Source: Candidatus Poribacteria bacterium
GTDB taxonomy: Bacteria > Poribacteria > WGA-4E > PCPOR2b
Direction: 5' to 3'
NCBI GenBank assembly: GCA_965208675.1
Contig: OZ242351.1
Location: 3,648,001-3,712,000, forward strand
DNA length: 64,000 bases
Below, piece by piece: positions 21,989-29,319 of the stretch (position 1 is the first letter of the stretch; every line of letters starts with the position of its first letter). Position numbers and translations under genes: made by a program. The notes beneath the pieces are model-generated. The model made no database searches and had not been told where the DNA came from. It worked only from the letters and a program-made list of their open reading frames with translations.

Positions 21989-22394
21989 CGGGTTTCCTCC
22001 TTCGATTGACAGACTGTTCGGCAAGCCTACTTCATTCAACGTGAATACGTAATGGTGCGTTTCAAGTCCTCATAAGAAAAATCCGTCGCTTTAATTTGTA
22101 ACTCCTCATCGGTTTTAATCCAATTCAAGATACGGAATGATAGCGCATTGTCGTCGTCTCTAGATAGATGAACGTGCGCCGAAGCTTCCACAGGAACCCT
22201 CTCTCATAAAATCGGCGCCAGTTTCGGTGCATCATGTTGGTCATGGTTGGACCCTGTCACACCACCAATTATAGAATTTATTGCGTGTGTGAAGGGGCGA
22301 GCAACGCTGCTGTATGACGCAGGCCAACTAACTGAAGCAGATGAAAAACACACGGCAATTACGCGGCTGTGTTCGCCAAGCGCAAAACTTGATA

Positions 22395-22423
22395 TTGACA
22401 AAGACTGACAGTTGTGCTATAAT
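22395..22423 (+). promoter_or_regulatory. Consensus sigma70 promoter
   Basis: Perfect TTGACA-N17-TATAAT with extended -10 TG. Confidence 0.8.
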
Positions 22424-22542
22424 CGCTTAGGTTGTGACTTGCACCCATGATGAGCATTTATTCTTGACGATACATTACCAGATGCACAGATTCCAATATC
22501 CAAGCATATTTTTCAATCTCAAATTTAGATTACGAATTCGGA

Positions 22543-23154
22543 ATGGAGAACAATCGGATGAACATAGAGCAACGCTTCGATGAAATCATTGAGAATCGGA
22601 ATTTGCTCAACCACCCCTTTTATTTAGCTTGGAGCGCAGGCCAGTTGCCCCAAGACGCATTGCGAACATACGCCCGTGAGTACGGCGCCTTCATCGCGCT
22701 TGTACCTGATGGTTGGCAAACTTTGAACGAACAGGAAATTGCGCAAGAAGAAAAAGAACATCTCGAAATGTGGAAAGACTTTGCACAAGGATTGGGAACA
22801 CACGTTGGCGAAGCCCATGTTGCGCAGGTGAAAAATCTGGTTGGCGTCGCACGGTCGCTATGGGAAAACCCGGAAACTGCACTGGGAGCGCTTTATGCCT
22901 TTGAAGCCCAGCAGCCCGCCACATCAAAGTCTAAACTCGAAGGGTTGAGAGCGTTTTACCAACTGCCGGGTGAAGTAGAACCTTACTTTGAAATCCACTC
23001 TCATAATGAGCACGAATCGGAAAAACTGCTGCATCGAATGCAACAACTTGCTCCAGGCGAACAAGATTCTGCTTTTCAAGCTTGTGAGAAAATGTGCGAC
23101 GCGCTTTGGTCGGCACTCAGCGGTATTTATGATGCGGAATGCGCGGTTAACTAA
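22543..23154 (+). CDS. Heme-oxygenase-like diiron enzyme, CADD/PqqC-like
   Basis: LLNHPFYLAWSAGQL..ALRTYAREY, EEKEH, ALYAFEAQQP..SKSKLEGL, YFEIH. Confidence 0.8.
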   Translation: MENNRMNIEQRFDEIIENRNLLNHPFYLAWSAGQLPQDALRTYAREYGAFIALVPDGWQTLNEQEIAQEEKEHLEMWKDFAQGLGTHVGEAHVAQVKNLVGVARSLWENPETALGALYAFEAQQPATSKSKLEGLRAFYQLPGEVEPYFEIHSHNEHESEKLLHRMQQLAPGEQDSAFQACEKMCDALWSALSGIYDAECAVN

Positions 23155-23371
23155 CGCTCAATATTAAAGCCGTATACCGGGCGCTCCTAATGGCTGAGGG
23201 CATGAGGAACGGCATTAATCTCTCATTAATTTCCGTCTGCGATGCCCCTCGCCTCCCATTCCACAAACCTCACCTACCCGTGTACGATTGAGAGTAATTC
23301 TGTATAAGCAGATGACAGTTTAATCGTCGATACGCTCTATTGTTTGTACAGAATTACAAAATACGGCAACT

Positions 23372-23754
23372 TCAGTAGCTGTTAGATTCATCTGATTTGG
23401 GGTCCGACCCAAATCGCAATACGTGATTATCAAGGTCTTCCACTTTCATTTCGTACGCCCAGGGGTAGTTTGTTGGGACCTCTCGATTCGTAGCACCGCT
23501 CGCTTGGTGTTCTTCATATAACTTCTCGACATCCTCGACACTTATCCAAGTCCAGGTTCCAGCTTGTCCCTGATCGCCGTGGCATAGCATTATATGACAG
23601 TGGCCGCGTGATACAGACCCAAAGCCTGGCGGATCTCCCCAATCCCAATCCTCTTAAAACCGAGCACTTTTACATAATAGTCGATACTGGCTGGAAAATT
23701 CTTGACATTGAAGATGGGTATGATGCACGCAAACTTGGTTTTTGTCCTTTTCAT
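23372..23754 (-). pseudogene. VOC/glyoxalase-bleomycin resistance family gene with 1-nt frameshift
   Basis: N-half IIPIFNVKNFPASIDYYVKVLGF and C-half EDWDWGDPPGFGSVSRG...PTNYPWAYEMKVEDLDNHVLRFG lie in different frames, joined at ~23654 (TTTAAGAG, one base short). Confidence 0.8.
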
Positions 23755-23952
23755 TGCATCCGCACTCGGCATTTCAAGAATTACGTTCCGTCAGAATTGT
23801 GTCCGCAAGTGTTGACCATTATGGCACAATTGGCAGTATTGTGTCAAACAGTATTCCCCACCCACTGGCATACGTAACAAACGCTTTCGTCTTCTATCTC
23901 GCCTCGATTTCCCACTCAACAAATTTCCCGCTGAATTTTTCTTCCAGTCTGT

Positions 23953-23979
23953 GAACTTTTCATTTCCTTGCGGTGTCAT
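23953..23979 (+). promoter_or_regulatory. Candidate ECF (sigmaE-like) autoregulatory promoter
   Basis: GAACTT-N16-GTCAT upstream of the ECF sigma gene. Confidence 0.55.
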
Positions 23980-24091
23980 TTAGAATGGAAGCTTACCGGA
24001 TGACCTATCGCCCCGCCTTTCGCCGGTAATTTTGATAAGCAATATCAAAGTGTCCTGAACCTAAGTCGGTACTTTCTTAAGCTGATGAGCA

Positions 24092-24706
24092 TTGATATTA
24101 CAATCCGATGAATTTCTCATTGATAAGATTCTTGAACGCGATGCGGAGGCGTTTGAAGTGCTTTGGGCACGATATAGCGCGTCCGTCCGCCGACACATCA
24201 TACGCACCGTACAGGACGAAAGTGCAGCCGAGGATTTGGTTCAGGAAGCATTCTTGCGTCTATGGACATCCGCTGAGCAGTGGGATGGGCGAGGCAACTT
24301 CAAGGGGTGGTTCTTCCGTATCGCCACAAACCTCGCCCTCAATCACCTGCGCGCCCTGCGTCGGCAGAAGCAACAGCCCCTCGAAATACCGCTGGACGAT
24401 TTTGATGATACGGACGACTACTCGTCCGACCCGGATTGGATGATTGACACATCGTTACGCAGTCCCGATGTGATGCTAGAACAAGCCGAGCAGTCTAATC
24501 TGCTCTGGCGGCTGGTTGAAGAACTGCCCGAAGATAAACGAGAAGTGCTTCACCTTGTATATCGGAAAGAGATGAATCTTCGTGACGTTGCCGCTGAGAT
24601 TGGCATCCCGGAAGGCACGGTGAAGTCGCGTTTACACTATTCCATAAAGCGTCTCGCTCAAGCATGGAAGGAGATTACAGGCGAATACGAGGAAGATAGT
24701 CAGTGA
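24092..24706 (+). CDS. ECF-type RNA polymerase sigma factor
   Basis: sigma2 AAEDLVQEAFLRLW...FKGWFFRIATNLALNHLR; sigma4 VAAEIGIPEGTVKSRLHY. TTG start is uncertain. Confidence 0.92.
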   Translation: MILQSDEFLIDKILERDAEAFEVLWARYSASVRRHIIRTVQDESAAEDLVQEAFLRLWTSAEQWDGRGNFKGWFFRIATNLALNHLRALRRQKQQPLEIPLDDFDDTDDYSSDPDWMIDTSLRSPDVMLEQAEQSNLLWRLVEELPEDKREVLHLVYRKEMNLRDVAAEIGIPEGTVKSRLHYSIKRLAQAWKEITGEYEEDSQ

Positions 24707-24729
24707 ACAAGCGAGGCTATTACTCGCCA

Positions 24730-24794
24730 CGCATTACGCATTCCGTATTACACATCACGATTCACGCTACACACTACACACTACACACTACACG
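24730..24794 (+). repeat. Heptamer tandem repeats (CTACACA x3 plus CTACACG, preceded by degenerate ACGCATT units)
   Basis: Exact CTACACA at 24767, 24774 and 24781. Confidence 0.7.
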
Positions 24795-24822
24795 AAATTC
24801 CCAATGGGAGGAGGAGACCGCA

Positions 24823-27800
24823 ATGTCACACAACATCACCGCATTATGGCACAAAAAATCTTTTGACCAACTGATGAACAATCGGCTGCCAGACCTACTC
24901 GCCGAGCGATTGCCGATAGCTGGCTACCATTTTGAACCTACCAGCACCTACACCGGTTGTATCAAAATCTCCCTCACGTCAACTGATGGCGACGTTGAAG
25001 TCGAATACACCGATATCCCGCAACCGGACAAGGAAGGGATGTTCAAAATTGACGGAGAAAACTATGTTGTCGTTCCAACGGCTTCGACTGATAACCTGAA
25101 AAAAGCGAAAATCAGATGTATTGGAGAGCAACTATATAGTTATATCAAAATGCGCTTGAAAGGTGCCACCTTAGACCTGTCATGGGAAACAGCCCCTGTA
25201 CGATCATGGCTCCCGCTTGATAAATGGATACAGGAATTCTTTCGTGACACATTTTACTCGCAGAAACTTCAGGAGACCAACTGGCTCGACAAGTATAGGC
25301 ATCTTCGACGGTTATACGTTCTGAACCGCGAGCAGGTATTCACGCCCTCCCACTTCGGGCGGGCATGCCCTTTCGAGACGCCAGAGGGGCCAAACATAGG
25401 TCGAATCCTTACGATTGCTAGGGGCGCCGAGATTCGCGGCGGAAAACTGGTCGTCGTTGATGAAAACCCCGAAGCAAACCTCGGCTTAGCATCGGCAATG
25501 ATCCCATTTCTTGAACACAACGATCCTGCCCAGACAATGATGGGGGCTAACATGTTGTGTCAGTGGATGGCGCCTTCGTCTCCGGAGACAGCTCCACTAC
25601 GCCAAGCCAAAGAGATACCGAGGTTGGCTGCTGCTCCGGAGCCCGCACTTGTCCAAACTGGTTTAGAACCGGATGTGCCCGACTTTTGGTGCGGTCGCAA
25701 CCTATTGACCGCTTTCATTTCTTGGGGCGGCGATACCTTCGAAGACGGCATCGTGATAAGCCGGTCGTGCGCAGCGCGTCTAAAATTTCCTTATGCAGTT
25801 GAACCCGGCGATAAGATTGGCAACCGTCATGGAACGAAAGGCGTCGTTTCGCGCATCCTGCCTGACGATGAGATGCCGCACCTTGCCGACGGTACACCGG
25901 TGGAACTTGTATTCAGTTTCGGTGGCTTGCACGCGCTAATGAACCTCGGTCAATTACGAGAGGCGGTGATGGGGCGTATTGCACGACTGGAAAATAAGCC
26001 AGCTATCGTGCCGCCATTCCGCGCTCCCTGTGCGGATGAATTGCGCGAACGCCTTAAGAACGCAGGACTTCCGGAAGATGGAATGGAACGCCTTACATTT
26101 GGGAGGAACGGTAATAAGGTGGGGCGGCATAGCACAGTCGGTTGGGTGTATTGGGGACGTCTGGCTCATATTGCGTTAGATAAAATAAAAGCCTCCGACT
26201 CAACCGATATTGAAGACCATAGGTACTTCCAAACACTTGGTGAACTTGAATACGATAGACTACGCAACGCCTCAGTACTTGAAACATTGAGGGAACATTT
26301 TAACACCCGCGCCATGAATCGGACTGATGCGCATACGTTAGCGGAGCGCGTCGCAATAGGCGAAGTTGAGCAGGCGGGTCCGCCGACGCCGATGTTCGCT
26401 AACCTCACGAATCGACTCTCGGCAGCAGGAATTTGGGCCGAACTCTACGGCGGCAAGTTGATTTTTAAATTTGGGCGACCGAATGGAAATACGCTCAAGC
26501 TTGCTCAGCCCGTCCCTTATCCGTGGTGCCGCGATCGAATCCTTGATGAAGTCGGGGTCCGTGAAGGCATGCCTGAATATCAGTCGCTTGCCGATGTCAA
26601 CGCCAGGGCTGACCGTATGCTTGCGAGTAATGCACCGGAAAGTTTAACCCGCCAAACCATCGTGCAGCTCCAAACCCGCGTCGCGGATTATGTCAATGCG
26701 CTCCTAAGCCCAACCGTCATGAACTTTAAGTCACGGAGCCTCTTCAGCGGACGCGCTGTCATAGCACCGGGTGCAGAGTTACACGCTGATCAGGTCGGTA
26801 TTCCGGAGGAGATGGCGTGGGCACTCTTTGGACATCATGTTACAAATCGGCTCGGTGATGCCGAAGAAGTACGGCGGCGTAGTCAAGGTGCAACACAAAT
26901 CCTGGATGAATTGATGGCGGGTTCGTGGGTAATTGTGCTTCGTCCACCGGCGCATACACTCACTAACCTCGTTGCGTTCCATCCGGTGCGGCACCCCGAC
27001 CGTGTCATCCGCGTGCATCCATTCGTGTGCGAGTTTATGAACGCCAATTTTGACGGCGATCAAGCAGCAGTCTTTCTCCCAATCACTGAAACCGGACAAC
27101 GCGAAGCCGGTGAACGGCTTTCCATCGCCGGGCATCTGAAACACGACCCAAGTTTATCCAAATTGCTGGCACCGACGCATGACGCGATGTGGGGATTGGC
27201 ACATTTAAGCCTCACCCCGGAAGGGCGCGGCGAAATCGCAGAGATTGTCGGAACCAACATCCCCGCCCCAGACGGTCTGGTTAGACAAGATTCGCTGGCA
27301 AAGTCACTAGAAGCCATCCTCAAATGCGATGGAATAGACCGCACGATTGAAATAGCCGAGCGTCTAATGCGGCGCGGGCTCGCAATTACTAAGGAATCGG
27401 GTGCCTCCATGAGCCCATTTATCAGTAGACCCGCTGGCAGCCCATCCGTTCCGGTAGATCCCGATGATGCACCCGCTTGGAACGCTCACGCAGAGGAACT
27501 TATCGAGTGGCTTGCCGCGTGTAACGACTTCGCGGACAACAACTTGGGACCGCACATCCTTGCGGCAAAAAGCCAAGACGCACGCAGTAGACTTTATCGA
27601 ATCGCTTGCTGTGTCGGGGCAAGAGGTACGGTTTTGGACCTTCGAGGAAGAGATATCATCGTTCGCAACGGGTATAGCGACGGTTTAACACCCGGTGAAC
27701 TTTACCCGCTTTCCGTCACTTCGCGGGAGGAGATTGTGCGGCTCAATTTGGAACGGCAACGGATAGAATTGGAATTGCGCAACGACAGTGAGCCAGCAGG

Positions 27801-27942
27801 ATTCACCGTCCTGGTGCGTGCAATGCGTGCCAAACACCCAGGTGTCGTTTTCGCCCGAGCCGCTGCAACCGGTGAGGTCGATCCGCTTACTGATGTGGAC
27901 AGCCGTCTTTTCGTCGGGCTACCTGTATCAACTGAGGAGTGA
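24823..27942 (+). CDS. Miniaturised single-chain RNA polymerase beta-beta' fusion homolog (~1039 aa)
   Basis: GGAGGAGG RBS. Beta motifs in order: [61 protein letters not shown]. Then beta' motifs: [38 protein letters not shown]. Confidence 0.9.
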   Translation: [1039 protein letters not shown]

Positions 27943-27979
27943 TTCATTATCTCGAACACACACATTATCCCTGATACAG

Positions 27980-28786
27980 TCATTCATCAAAGACTTCGCT
28001 GCCGATTGAGCCGCCGGCATTCATCGCCAAGTTGCCGCCGTCCATCGGAATTATCGCACCGGTAATCCATGAGGACGCATCCGATGCGAGAAACACGGTT
28101 AGACCGCGGATGTCGTCAGGACTCCCGAATCGACCCATTGGAATGCCGCTGAGGAACCGATCCCTAATTCGCGGATCAGCGTCGATGCGTTTCTGCAAAT
28201 CTGGGTTTAATACTTGTGCGGGTAAAATCGCATTGACTCGCACACCGCGCCCCGACCATTCGGTGCTCAGCTCACGTGTCATCTGAACAACCGCACCCAT
28301 CGCCATGCTGTATGCGATGTGCCCGCGGCCCATACCCGTGATGCTTGCCAAAGAACCGAGACTTACGATGCTCCCACTTCCAGCAGTAAGCATCCGCCGC
28401 CCGGCTTCCTGACAACAACAGAATCTGCCATAGACAAGGTTGCGCCAAGTCTGTTCAACGTCTTCTAATGAGATAACCTCCGGTTTTGATCGGGTCGCTT
28501 CGCCCGCGACATTACCTAGAAAATCGATCCGACCAAATTCCTCGTCCACTCGTGCAAACATGGCGCGGATTTGATCCGGACGCGATACGTCACAATCAAC
28601 AGCGATGGCACGGCGTCCCATCGCCTTGATTTCTCTAGCAGTTTTCCCCGCACCAGCCAAGTCAATATCTGCAAGCATCAAGTCCGCCCCCGCTTCTGCC
28701 AAAGCTAACGACATCGCACGACCCATGCCACTAGCCGCTCCCGATACAACTGCAACTCGTCCGGCAAGATTGAACATCTCCGTCAC
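27980..28786 (-). CDS. SDR family NAD(P)-dependent oxidoreductase
   Basis: VSGAASGMG, YSMAMG (YxxxK variant with K>M), RVNAILP, PMDGG. Confidence 0.9.
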   Translation of the reverse strand: MTEMFNLAGRVAVVSGAASGMGRAMSLALAEAGADLMLADIDLAGAGKTAREIKAMGRRAIAVDCDVSRPDQIRAMFARVDEEFGRIDFLGNVAGEATRSKPEVISLEDVEQTWRNLVYGRFCCCQEAGRRMLTAGSGSIVSLGSLASITGMGRGHIAYSMAMGAVVQMTRELSTEWSGRGVRVNAILPAQVLNPDLQKRIDADPRIRDRFLSGIPMGRFGSPDDIRGLTVFLASDASSWITGAIIPMDGGNLAMNAGGSIGSEVFDE

Positions 28787-29319
28787 AATCCCCTCTCTGT
28801 CTTCATTTTAAATCCAATTACGCTCTCATAGTTGGTGACCGGGATTGAAGCCCTTCTATTTCGTGATGCCTTGGCGCGGGTTCAACTCTTTAATCGCTAA
28901 CACATTTTACACACCGCGCCAAGTGTGTCAAGATGAGAAATTCAGGATTAACAAAAAAGACCTCAAGCATGCGTCATTGAGATTGGCAGCTGTTTTTACG
29001 TGTTGACTCTTTCTTTTCCAATCAACGATTCGAGTTTTTTCTGCAACTGGAAAGTCCTTTCGAACTTCTATGTCCGCTGCTTCTATCGTCTCTCGTAGGG
29101 CTCGATTTGCCTGAACGGCGCCGGCTCCATTGCCTTGTACCTGCTTCTCAAAAAAGATTGTAAACGACGCCGCTTCGACAAATTCATACCGCCGGCCGCA
29201 CACGGTTCTCTGTTCAAATTTATCCCCGGCAAGTGCGAATTTCACCGAATTAAACTATTCTCTTTCACTTTCGGTCTATAAGTAACGAAAATTCAACTCA
29301 AACGCCTGGAGGACTTACT

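Follow-up and report, generated by a model that had tools for sequence, protein, structure and literature searches.

The window analyzed here, a stretch of 64,000 nucleotides of contiguous DNA, contains a two-gene module under a conserved ECF-type promoter. The first gene encodes an ECF sigma factor. The second encodes a protein of 1039 aa, designated mini-RNAP, which is a single-chain fusion of a pruned beta and a pruned beta' subunit of RNA polymerase (RNAP). The mini-RNAP gene lies directly downstream of its sigma gene, and the spacing suggests that the two are cotranscribed. The module consists of the following elements:

23952-23977, + strand: ECF-type operon promoter, with -35 TGAAC, a 15-nt spacer, and -10 GGTGTC
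24092-24706, + strand: gene of the cognate ECF (group 4) sigma factor, 204 aa, assigned by Pfam and NCBIfam
24823-27942, + strand: mini-RNAP coding sequence, 1039 aa, starting with the ATG at 24823 behind GGAGG

The promoter fits the ECF type in having GAAC in its -35 and GTC in its -10 element, and it would be used by the sigma factor encoded behind it. The motif was found upstream of the ECF gene with identical spacing in 34 of 35 loci; in the 35th, the spacing is one base shorter. When the source genome was scanned with a PWM, the operon site scored 31.4 bits and the runner-up 17.1 bits, with controls reaching at most 19.9 bits. Nothing but the operon's own site exceeded the controls in this genome, and a strict pattern search for a regulon yielded 4 sites versus 3 in the control. 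With an extended consensus, the operon site stood alone in four of five further genomes, the fifth having one extra site. The leader between the promoter and the sigma gene folds no better than shuffled sequences (z = -0.11), no terminator-like site was found downstream of the operon, and Rfam returned no match over positions 22000-29000.

The sigma factor is built of the sigma2 and sigma4 domains only. It exceeded the cut-offs for Pfam Sigma70_r2 and Sigma70_r4/r4_2 and for NCBIfam TIGR02937 (117.4 bits versus a cut-off of 42.9). Of 39 related loci, drawn from six phyla, 38 have an orthologous ECF gene (40-87% identity) upstream of the mini-RNAP gene in the same orientation; at the 39th locus, no upstream DNA is present. 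Stop and start codons of the two genes often overlap, and no neighbor other than the ECF gene is conserved across the mini-RNAP loci. In the sigma factor, D48 and W58 are invariant and E52 is at least 90% conserved. Key sigma residues showed no variation across 35 ECF/mini-RNAP pairs. A PxWMID motif and a Pro are conserved in the sigma linker. A stretch on the sigma HTH was labeled CARF by PADLOC; this match was weak (E = 0.0017) and was taken as chance.

Architecture of the mini-RNAP

A family profile HMM was made from 103 aligned members and used for a domain map against E. coli RpoB and RpoC, which gave 274.8 and 172.5 bits, respectively. Pfam detected Rpb2_3, Rpb2_6 (129.5 bits), and Rpb1_2 in the mini-RNAP, and its sequence and fold matches in the PDB were beta and beta' (e.g., 6kon and 6tye). 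The AF2 model of the protein has a mean pLDDT of 93.3 and a pTM of 0.91. Two parts of the overall layout are the following:

24823-26454, + strand: beta-derived half, residues 1-544, delimited by the family HMM against E. coli RpoB
27691-27786, + strand: bridge helix, residues 957-988, helical in the AF2 model and matching the beginning of E. coli region F

The protein retains the double-psi barrels of both subunits as well as the bridge helix and the clamp helices of beta'. Gone are the beta lobes and the flap with its tip helix, together with the zinc ribbon, lid, rudder, and trigger loop of beta'. The beta-derived half extends to the equivalent of the beta C terminus; missing from it are the lobes (beta 149-472) and the flap (beta 822-1053), and its barrel motif GDK...RHG.KG (residues 329-340) is intact. 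Only 15-20 residues follow the bridge helix at the place of the trigger loop.

The proteins of this family, ~1000 aa in length, are annotated merely as hypothetical. Among the matches listed, at least 120 are close relatives of ~1000-1060 aa, and those that were aligned share the start Met. The source organism is a sponge-symbiont bacterium with a normal rpoC in the same genome, where the mini-RNAP is accessory. Domain and fold searches of the mini-RNAP revealed RNAP domains only and no anti-sigma domain or other known sigma-binding fold. PADLOC assigned it to no defense family, and matches in PHROGs were restricted to RNAP beta and sigma families. No close member was found on viral contigs, on which the best match (33% identity over parts) was of the phage multisubunit RNAP type.

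Docking sites for the sigma factor

In the E. coli sigmaE holoenzyme as described in PMC6648896, sigma2 is seated on the clamp helices and the flap tip helix holds sigma4; the linker runs between lid and rudder and leaves via the RNA exit channel. The corresponding places in the mini-RNAP are as follows:

25768-25806, + strand: joint replacing the beta flap, residues 316-328, from the family HMM and relatives
25873-25911, + strand: first putative alpha-contact segment, residues 351-363 (~beta 1085-1097), from the sequence
26080-26112, + strand: second putative alpha-contact segment, residues 420-430 (~beta 1208-1218), from the sequence
26500-26526, + strand: remnant of a conserved motif of the beta' N terminus, residues 560-568, in a weak HMM stretch
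26572-26706, + strand: clamp helices, a coiled-coil hairpin of residues 584-628, the canonical sigma2 dock, from HMM and AF2
26707-26745, + strand: short link at the place of the beta' rudder, residues 629-641, from the HMM alignment

Residues 284-315 correspond to beta 790-821 and residues 320-414 to beta 1054-1148 in the family HMM; thus, four residues stand for beta 822-1053. In each of the 103 aligned relatives, only a short joint is left of this region. Between S315 and G329, 13 residues are present in 96 of the 103, and the maximum is 34. A preliminary description of this DNA had located the flap deletion between FEDG and PGDK (residues 306-331, positions 25738-25815). These coordinates are exact, and the gap in the HMM confirms the deletion. 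The beta' Zn finger, which had been reported as missing, is indeed absent: beta' 1-75 is without counterpart, and there is no Cys cluster. Residues 500-584 contain 0-3 Cys across the 103 relatives and none in 55 of them. In a weak HMM stretch, residues 530-580 align to beta' 76-127, the preceding zinc ribbon being gone. Together with beta' 1-75, beta' 128-266 and the rudder loop lack a counterpart, which corresponds to the zinc ribbon, lid, and rudder. The link at the rudder site measures 13 residues in 88 of the 103 relatives, and E. coli is 25 residues longer there.

The clamp helices are recognizable by several approaches. Residues 584-798 align to E. coli beta' 267-516 in one stretch (135.7 bits, E = 1.6e-43, 103-member HMM), and within it residues 584-628 match the clamp helices at beta' 267-310. 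An HMM of the 45 coiled-coil columns detected E. coli beta' 269-309 with 17.6 bits and the canonical beta' of the source genome at 301-341 with 16.9 bits, and the top score among 2000 shuffled RpoC controls was 4.8 bits. In the AF2 model, this part forms a helical hairpin (helix 584-601, turn 602-605, helix 606-627). The coiled coil noted earlier from position 26575 onward (residues 585-620) is correct to the letter, and its ungapped beta' register was reproduced by the HMM.

The sigma32 interface on beta' comprises R275, R278, R281, L282, L285, I291, E295, and M298, as listed in PMC10216364. Four of these eight positions are conserved in kind in the mini-RNAP: the equivalents of R278, R281, L282, and I291 are R595 (77%), R598 (74%), M/L/I599, and L608 (93%). 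The other four are altered, with V592, S602, T612, and Q615 in this protein and A, S, A, and Q as the family majority. The coiled coil of the canonical beta' in this genome is nearly identical to that of E. coli.

From these alignments, the sigma2 dock appears to be the only one of the ECF-core contacts in solved holoenzymes that has a counterpart in the mini-RNAP. The anatomy proposed at the outset, a sigma2 dock retained and a sigma4 dock lost, thus holds, and the lid and rudder guiding the ECF linker are missing as well. Complex prediction for the ECF with mini-RNAP residues 1-796 gave a score of 0.24, below the mark of 0.32, a result that counts neither way. NusG/Spt5-type factors also bind the clamp helices in cellular polymerases, so the retention of these helices need not serve sigma.

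The two segments designated earlier as alpha contacts are present in the mini-RNAP as putative contacts. Residues 351-363 are part of a universally conserved region of the beta barrel. The neighborhood comparison revealed no alpha-like gene linked to mini-RNAP loci.

Catalytic center in the family and in this genus

Four positions of the active site differ from the canonical enzyme:

25531-25533, + strand: Gln at the position of beta R678
25558-25560, + strand: Cys at the position of beta R687
25936-25938, + strand: Leu at the position of beta R1106
27040-27060, + strand: catalytic loop NANFDGD, with Asn at the first Mg-binding Asp (beta' D460)

In the family, the catalytic residues are kept. 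Among 183 HMM-aligned members (a regular expression applied to 182 left 26 unmatched), the D460 equivalent is Asp in 170, the D462 equivalent in 181, and the D464 equivalent in 180, and R1069 is conserved in all 183. The mini-RNAP of the window lacks the NADFDGD triad signature and has the fold and descent of the polymerase. Conservation among the 99 other relatives reaches at least 90% in 144 columns; the mini-RNAP of the window departs at 9 of these, four of them in the active site. The 135 positions kept include the second and third Asp, GDK...RHG.KG, and the equivalents of beta E813/D814. Asp-triad substitutions cripple catalysis in E. coli RNAP; Asn in place of the first Asp may leave some activity.

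The Asn is common to all nine members of a clade (Asn clade), and the arginine losses occur in subsets of it. A relative with 94% identity has, of the four active-site changes in the window, the Asn only. Catalytic residues have been lost repeatedly, in lineages distinct from one another: the clade of the window, P0029/P0034, P0158, P0163, and P0192. In the Asn clade, dN/dS was 0.18-0.21 for the mini-RNAP and 0.15-0.21 for sigma; in the sister clade, the values were 0.15-0.16 and 0.13-0.22. No stops or frameshifts were found in the mini-RNAP across four genomes of the genus. The module was found in 22 of 121 genomes of the phylum, with one gene split.

Within the Asn clade, divergence is lowest in the beta' barrel (0.108). 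For the coiled coil, the mean pairwise divergence was 0.173 in this clade versus 0.085 in the sister clade, values that are noisy given 45 residues, and for the whole protein it was 0.161 versus 0.119. Members of the Asn clade show no special preservation of the coiled coil.

Relation to known systems and proposed function

No published description of an ECF-linked protein with beta and beta' fused emerged from the literature search; an earlier mention is possible in Iyer and Aravind 2012 (J Struct Biol). In the main text of PMC7826278, the terms Rpb2, RpoB, RpoC, and "beta subunit" do not occur, and ECF271 of a Chloroflexi bacterium is listed with "unknown mechanism" (PMC8999054). The canonical RNAP of the ECF holoenzymes described in PMC6648896 (E. 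coli sigmaE-RPo and M. tuberculosis sigmaH and sigmaL) is clearly homologous to the mini-RNAP in both large subunits and shares with it both barrels, bridge helix, clamp helices, an ECF partner, and an ECF-type promoter. In contrast to its ~2750 residues, the mini-RNAP is one chain of 1039 aa, with an altered catalytic loop in this genome. The beta::beta' fusions of the Helicobacter/Wolbachia type (NCBIfam NF011417 and NF007172) have the same order, beta then beta', but are complete essential subunits of ~2800-2900 aa; the mini-RNAP matched these models with 154 and 142 bits, the cut-offs being 4632 and 5372.

According to PMC5467207, YonO of the B. subtilis prophage SPbeta is, like the mini-RNAP, a single-chain two-barrel enzyme of ~100 kDa without trigger loop and most peripheral domains. 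Beyond a few catalytic residues, it is described as sharing almost no sequence with cellular RNAPs, whereas the mini-RNAP family is plainly derived from bacterial beta/beta'. The passages on YonO name no sigma partner, and the mini-RNAP family is tied to one. Orf6 of pGKL2, a yeast killer plasmid, is an Rpb2::Rpb1 fusion with the same fusion order and, at 982 aa, a similar size; in both proteins, about half of each subunit is deleted. In the account of PMC2919709, Orf6 is of eukaryotic ancestry, is encoded on a linear plasmid in the cytoplasm, and lacks a sigma factor. ECF anti-sigma factors resemble the mini-RNAP in that the gene lies directly behind sigma and in a possible effect, keeping sigma off the host core. 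Unlike them, the mini-RNAP has no anti-sigma domain, and its mode would be mimicry of the sigma2 dock.

With moderate confidence, we propose that the mini-RNAP is an active sigma-linked polymerase in most lineages and a sigma- and/or DNA-binding pseudo-polymerase in this genus. Sigma would meet the mini-RNAP core via sigma2 on the clamp helices, and sigma4 could not be held there at its canonical place. Because conservation is strict for sigma4, the -35 box, and the 17-nt spacing, and because the promoter is unique in the genome, the operon is most likely transcribed by the flap-bearing host core loaded with this sigma, which would amount to positive autoregulation. An unrecognized sigma4 dock on the mini-RNAP would explain the same conservation equally well. 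Since the catalytic residues are kept family-wide (see the first Asp above), its members probably are active sigma-linked polymerases rather than decoys, and in most lineages the mini-RNAP would serve as a second polymerase that shares the ECF sigma. Decay of the active site in this genus seems to have been stepwise, from Asp to Asn and then, in this genome, at the three arginines, while the entire protein and its sigma remain under purifying selection. With one sigma docking site and a damaged catalytic center, the mini-RNAP may act here by binding and not by RNA synthesis. Function without catalysis is most likely here, and a sigma-binding role is plausible; such a pseudo-polymerase would draw sigma off the host core and thereby damp its own promoter. 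The sequestering core mimic put forward in the preliminary description does not suit the family, ~93% of whose 183 members keep the catalytic residues, and survives as a live possibility for this genus only, with its Asn and the lost equivalents of R678, R687, and R1106. A more specific version, a dead mini-RNAP acting as a clamp-helix decoy core in this genus and a second machine dependent on sigma through sigma2 contacts alone in the Asp-bearing majority, is conceivable but doubtful. Several points speak against the proposed scheme: four of the eight sigma32-contact positions are altered, the coiled coil is not singled out for preservation in the Asn clade, and a sigma with its own promoter as sole visible target plus a dead polymerase is a loop without evident output.

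The mini-RNAP might instead work without sigma, like YonO, with the ECF on the host core merely switching the operon on. The clamp helices would then persist for the integrity of the clamp, for contacts with DNA, or for a factor of the NusG type. PMC5467207 reports that YonO is active in transcription although it has no trigger loop, and that the flap, lid, zipper, rudder, and lobe can be dispensed with in vitro under mild conditions; moreover, half of the coiled-coil residues that canonically contact sigma differ, and every other docking element for sigma or its linker is missing. We nevertheless regard sigma independence as unlikely, given the near-obligate pairing with one orthologous ECF in six phyla with frequent stop/start overlap, a promoter essentially unique per genome, which is unusual for a mere regulator, and the joint conservation of an Arg pair on the coiled coil and an acidic pair in sigma2. 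The conserved PxWMID motif and Pro also set this sigma apart from ECF linkers, described as nonconserved in PMC6648896. Another alternative is that the protein of the window is still an active, sigma-dependent polymerase, its losses being tolerated or compensated, for example by another metal or substrate, and sigma4 being placed by a new surface. The intact ORF with a dN/dS of ~0.2, the conserved positions kept, and the low divergence of the beta' barrel agree with this; four independent active-site losses, stepwise in one lineage and at residues nearly invariant elsewhere in the family, make it quite improbable.

Two further explanations fit the data less readily. That the whole family is a core-mimicking anti-sigma factor sequestering the ECF would be in line with the gene's usual anti-sigma position behind sigma without any other conserved neighbor, with a sigma4 dock missing in all members, and with the repeated loss of catalytic residues in separate lineages. 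However, a decoy needs neither a bridge helix nor both barrels, nor ~1000 residues with catalytic residues near-invariant in ~93% of members, and we consider a family-wide decoy very improbable. It is hardly credible that the gene is functionless and on its way to loss in this genus: the decayed active site and the dispensability of the module in the phylum would suit such a fate, but the reading frame is uninterrupted in the four genomes at the dN/dS given above, and sigma and promoter are retained.

In the textbook view, a bacterium possesses a single core RNA polymerase. A one-chain relative that is widespread, unannotated, and tied to its own sigma would add a second device for transcription. 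The anatomy of this relative would represent a natural deletion experiment, in which the holders of sigma4 and the linker are gone and the sigma2 dock alone is left, making the minimal needs of sigma-dependent initiation directly testable. The Asn clade would be a case of a polymerase remaining under selection after loss of its catalytic center and raises the question of what use a dead RNAP is. We know of no precedent for anti-sigma action by mimicry of the core's own sigma2 dock. If true for this genus, an RNAP paralogue would have turned into a pseudo-enzyme that regulates by mimicry, an unprecedented anti-sigma mechanism.

Domain map of the mini-RNAP

The genes of the ECF sigma factor and the mini-RNAP form an operon, in which a 116-nt spacer separates the two reading frames:

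23952-23977: operon promoter (the 23953 promoter of the preliminary description)
24092-24706, + strand: ECF sigma gene, 204 aa
24823-27942, + strand: mini-RNAP ORF, 1039-aa product; start conserved (ATG 24823) and preceded by GGAGG

In the window, the spacer is filled by tandem heptamer arrays (ACGCATT x4.4 and CACACTA x4.4, 24729-24793); a 4-base overlap of the two genes takes its place in most other phyla.

The 1039-aa product gave Pfam matches to Rpb2_3, Rpb2_6 and Rpb1_2 and matched the NCBIfam rpoB and rpoC models with scores far under their cut-offs. Solved beta and beta' chains were matched by sequence, and the AF2 model (pLDDT 93.3, pTM 0.91) matched bacterial and plastid beta and beta' chains in Foldseek. 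Because a normal rpoC (1433-aa frame) exists elsewhere in the same genome, the mini-RNAP gene is an accessory paralogue. A family profile of 103 full-length relatives (alignment A2) was run against E. coli RpoB and RpoC from NC_000913.

Segments of the mini-RNAP and their E. coli counterparts
106-203: beta 473-580
211-284: beta 652-707
284-315: beta 790-821
320-414: beta 1054-1148
389-544: beta 1177-1342 (C-terminus)
530-580: beta' 76-127 (weak)
584-798: beta' 267-516 (135.7 bits)
810-982: beta' 586-794

After the GANM..Q motif, only the window's closest Poribacteria sequences carry an insertion of ~26 residues (mini-RNAP ~250-272, window ~25570-25640); that of another relative, P0078, is longer.

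The clamp helices had been described as kept without gaps, and the profile alignment returned the identical register. A profile restricted to the 45 coiled-coil columns scored 17.6 bits at E. coli beta' 269-309 and 16.9 bits at residues 301-341 of the genome's own canonical beta', against a best score of 4.8 bits among 2000 shuffled RpoC sequences. In the AF2 model, the hairpin consists of helix 584-601, a turn and helix 606-627. Removal of the flap was likewise borne out: a short joint stands in place of beta 822-1053 (a region that includes an insertion in E. coli), and between S315 and G329 it measures 13 residues in 96/103 relatives and 34 at most. The beta' Zn finger is indeed absent, with zero to three Cys and no zinc-ribbon Cys cluster at residues 500-584 in the 103 relatives. 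To these losses we add the lid region (beta' 128-266, without counterpart), the rudder loop (a 13-residue link in 88/103) and the trigger loop (the bridge helix is followed by just 15-20 residues in 100/103). The protein also lacks the beta lobes (beta 149-472). Both segments proposed to contact alpha are present in the sequence; they belong to the universally conserved barrel region, which is by itself a sufficient explanation for their retention.

Catalytic centre in the family and in the Asn clade

Active-site residues were counted in 183 HMM-aligned full-length proteins of the family.

Counts at equivalents of E. coli active-site residues (of 183)
beta' D460: D 170, N 11, G 2
beta' D462: D 181
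beta' D464: D 180
beta R1069: 183
beta K1065: 177
beta K1073: 177
beta R1106: 176
beta R687: 177
beta R678: 163

Residue 740 (window 27040-27042), ahead of the Asp triad, corresponds to beta' N458, which senses the sugar of the incoming nucleotide in cellular RNAPs; it varies within the family, being N in 127 proteins, D in 30, Q in 14, E in 6, S in 3, G in 2 and T in 1. Since the catalytic residues are kept family-wide, the family as such appears to be built to polymerise. A passage of PMC5467207 reports that YonO works without homologues of the trigger loop, flap, lid, rudder and lobe, and this working example would fit a polymerising family that lacks the same peripheral elements.

The window's catalytic loop reads NANFDGD, and Asn replaces D460 in all nine proteins of its clade (80-94% identity). 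At least 90% conservation in the 99 other aligned relatives was found for 144 columns. The window differs at nine of these, and four of the nine departures are active-site residues (R678Q, R687C, R1106L and D460N). In a 94%-identical relative, Asn is the sole one of the four changes. The dN/dS of the mini-RNAP was 0.18-0.21 in the Asn clade versus 0.15-0.16 in the sister clade, that of the sigma factor was 0.15-0.21 in the Asn clade, and the operon promoter is intact in the window despite the active-site losses. A mini-RNAP that is dead here yet under selection must earn its keep without catalysis, and since a dead enzyme is unable to transcribe its own gene, the host polymerase must do so. 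Two rivals bear on this point. One is residual activity despite the Asn. The other, plain decay of the gene, would account for the active-site losses; the dN/dS values and the intact promoter speak for continued selection.

Distribution, sigma factor and promoter of the module

A search of genome contigs yielded 39 loci with full or partial family members, in Poribacteria, Chloroflexota, Planctomycetota, Armatimonadota, Latescibacterota and Gemmatimonadota. In 38 of these loci, an ECF orthologous to that of the window (40-87% identity) is encoded upstream on the same strand; the one left, L016, has no upstream DNA in its sequence. The ECF of L019 is 3 kb from the mini-RNAP gene. No further conserved neighbour gene was found among the 39 loci. 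Source-named relatives were all "hypothetical" or labelled by Pfam domains alone, and the 413 proteins at E <=1e-30 among 50%-identity representatives include fragments and strong canonical RpoB matches. Presence in just 22 of 121 genomes of the phylum and 3 of 19 genera (one copy split) shows that the gene is accessory.

A sister-genus genome has the mini-RNAP gene in two frames (G093:C2:821095-824204), and the ECF gene of L041 is also split over two frames (L041 5395-7050); both are cases of occasional decay of the module. G+C is 0.51-0.54 across the operon (24001-28000) versus 0.46 just upstream, which, with the patchy distribution, is compatible with horizontal arrival. Two short ORFs on the minus strand (23372-23772; 72 and 60 aa, abutting at 23590, without Pfam match) are possibly a broken gene between a haem-oxygenase-like gene (22543-23154) and the operon. 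Some IMG/VR contigs match mini-RNAP 160-1003 at ~25% identity in a single ~3.4-kb stretch (L086 5001-8442 and similar viral loci), where the phage may encode beta and beta' homologues side by side or as a fusion.

The sigma alignment (A3) comprised 35 sequences, excluding L014 (close kin of L004), the partial L009 and L040, and the split L041. Sigma4 is strongly conserved, with G175, T176, S179, R180 and L181 invariant, and the linker has a PxWMID motif and a Pro, both conserved. ECF linkers are called non-conserved in a passage of PMC6648896, which makes this one unusual. Beside these motifs, the linker (residues 96-135, window ~24377-24496) has an acidic run; the C-terminal tail (residues 190-204, window ~24659-24703) is acidic as well, with a Trp in many orthologues and a Tyr in the window's clade. 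Linker and tail are candidates for new contacts with the mini-RNAP.

The region ahead of the ECF gene contains TGAAC and T/C-GTC with 17 nt between them in 34 of 35 loci; in the exception, L030, the spacing is 16 nt by eye. The motif, with consensus TGAACcT-N11-GCGGTGTCtT, precedes a third conserved patch. This patch (aGTGgAgg; window 23978-23991) is separated by 4 nt from the -10 element upstream of it in most of 34 loci (L004-L039), stands in many of them 6-10 nt ahead of the sigma start codon, and may serve as a ribosome site, as a start-site element or as both. A PWM scan of the 4.89-Mb genome scored the operon site at 31.4 bits and the runner-up at 17.1, with reversed and complemented controls reaching 19.9. 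Five further complete genomes, in all of which the enzyme is Asp-bearing, had 5, 5, 4, 2 and 7 sites of the strict pattern (controls 2, 5, 2, 2 and 2), and the extended consensus gave only the operon-adjoining site, plus one extra in G103. That second copy (L085 299-324 = G103:C1:5486998-5487023) has a similar spacer, directly precedes two ABC-2 permease genes and is possibly a rare extra sigma target. With the extended consensus nearly confined to the operon, the visible regulon of the sigma factor is essentially its own operon, and the module has no obvious output.

That the spacing is fixed and the -35 box conserved argues for some core that places sigma2 and sigma4 at the canonical distance from each other. 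In the host core, the flap needed for this is present. Flap-less E. coli RNAP, as Kuznedelov and co-workers reportedly found in 2002, fails at -35-dependent but not at extended -10 promoters.

Predicted sigma contacts and a proposed role of the mini-RNAP

As described in PMC6648896 for E. coli sigmaE-RPo, a polar surface of sigma2 lies on the clamp helices, the flap tip helix holds sigma4, and the linker runs between lid and rudder, under the lid and out via the RNA exit channel. Among these partners, the clamp helices alone exist in the mini-RNAP. For the sigma32 complex, an excerpt of PMC10216364 lists beta' R275, R278, R281, L282, L285, I291, E295 and M298 opposite sigma D77, E81, I84 and M87. 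The mini-RNAP equivalents are, in order, V592, R595, R598, M599, S602, L608, T612 and Q615. Arg is found at position 595 in 77% of the family and at 598 in 74%, Leu at 608 in 93%, and M, L or I at 599; the remaining four positions are altered in kind family-wide. In the cognate ECFs, D48 and W58 are invariant, E52 is conserved in at least 90% and position 55 is hydrophobic. Because R595/R598 and D48/E52 are conserved, the Arg pair probably faces the sigma acidic pair as in canonical holoenzymes, with half of the surface remodelled.

The genome's canonical beta' coiled coil is almost the same as that of E. coli. Mean pairwise divergence of the mini-RNAP coiled coil, a short segment, was 0.173 in the Asn clade versus 0.085 in the sister clade (whole protein, 0.161 versus 0.119). 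By these values, the coiled coil of the Asn clade seems to be under no extra constraint, which counts against a special role there. A rival reading, favoured by the remodelled half of the contact surface, is a sigma-independent enzyme with a coiled coil that binds partners other than sigma; the conserved charge pairs and the ECF gene upstream in 38 loci point to sigma. The preliminary description had proposed a sequestering core mimic. With the Asn and the lost arginines, this is plausible in the window's genus; a decoy role across the whole family, which the missing flap would suit, does not agree with the catalytic residues kept there.

No prior description of the family was found in the searchable literature, a scope outside which the Iyer and Aravind 2012 and PMC7826278 supplements lie. 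New here are the element-by-element map of sigma contacts, the conserved promoter that is unique in each genome, the strict conservation of sigma4 though the flap is missing, and the stepwise loss of arginines. Taken jointly, we give the following reading about an even chance. The family would be a mini polymerase in a single chain, linked to a sigma factor and retaining, of the sigma docks, that of sigma2 alone, and the host core with the cognate ECF would fire the unique operon promoter. In this genus, the mini-RNAP would have turned into a pseudo-polymerase that is left with binding as its activity, most simply the binding of its own sigma factor, and would thereby exert negative feedback on the operon.
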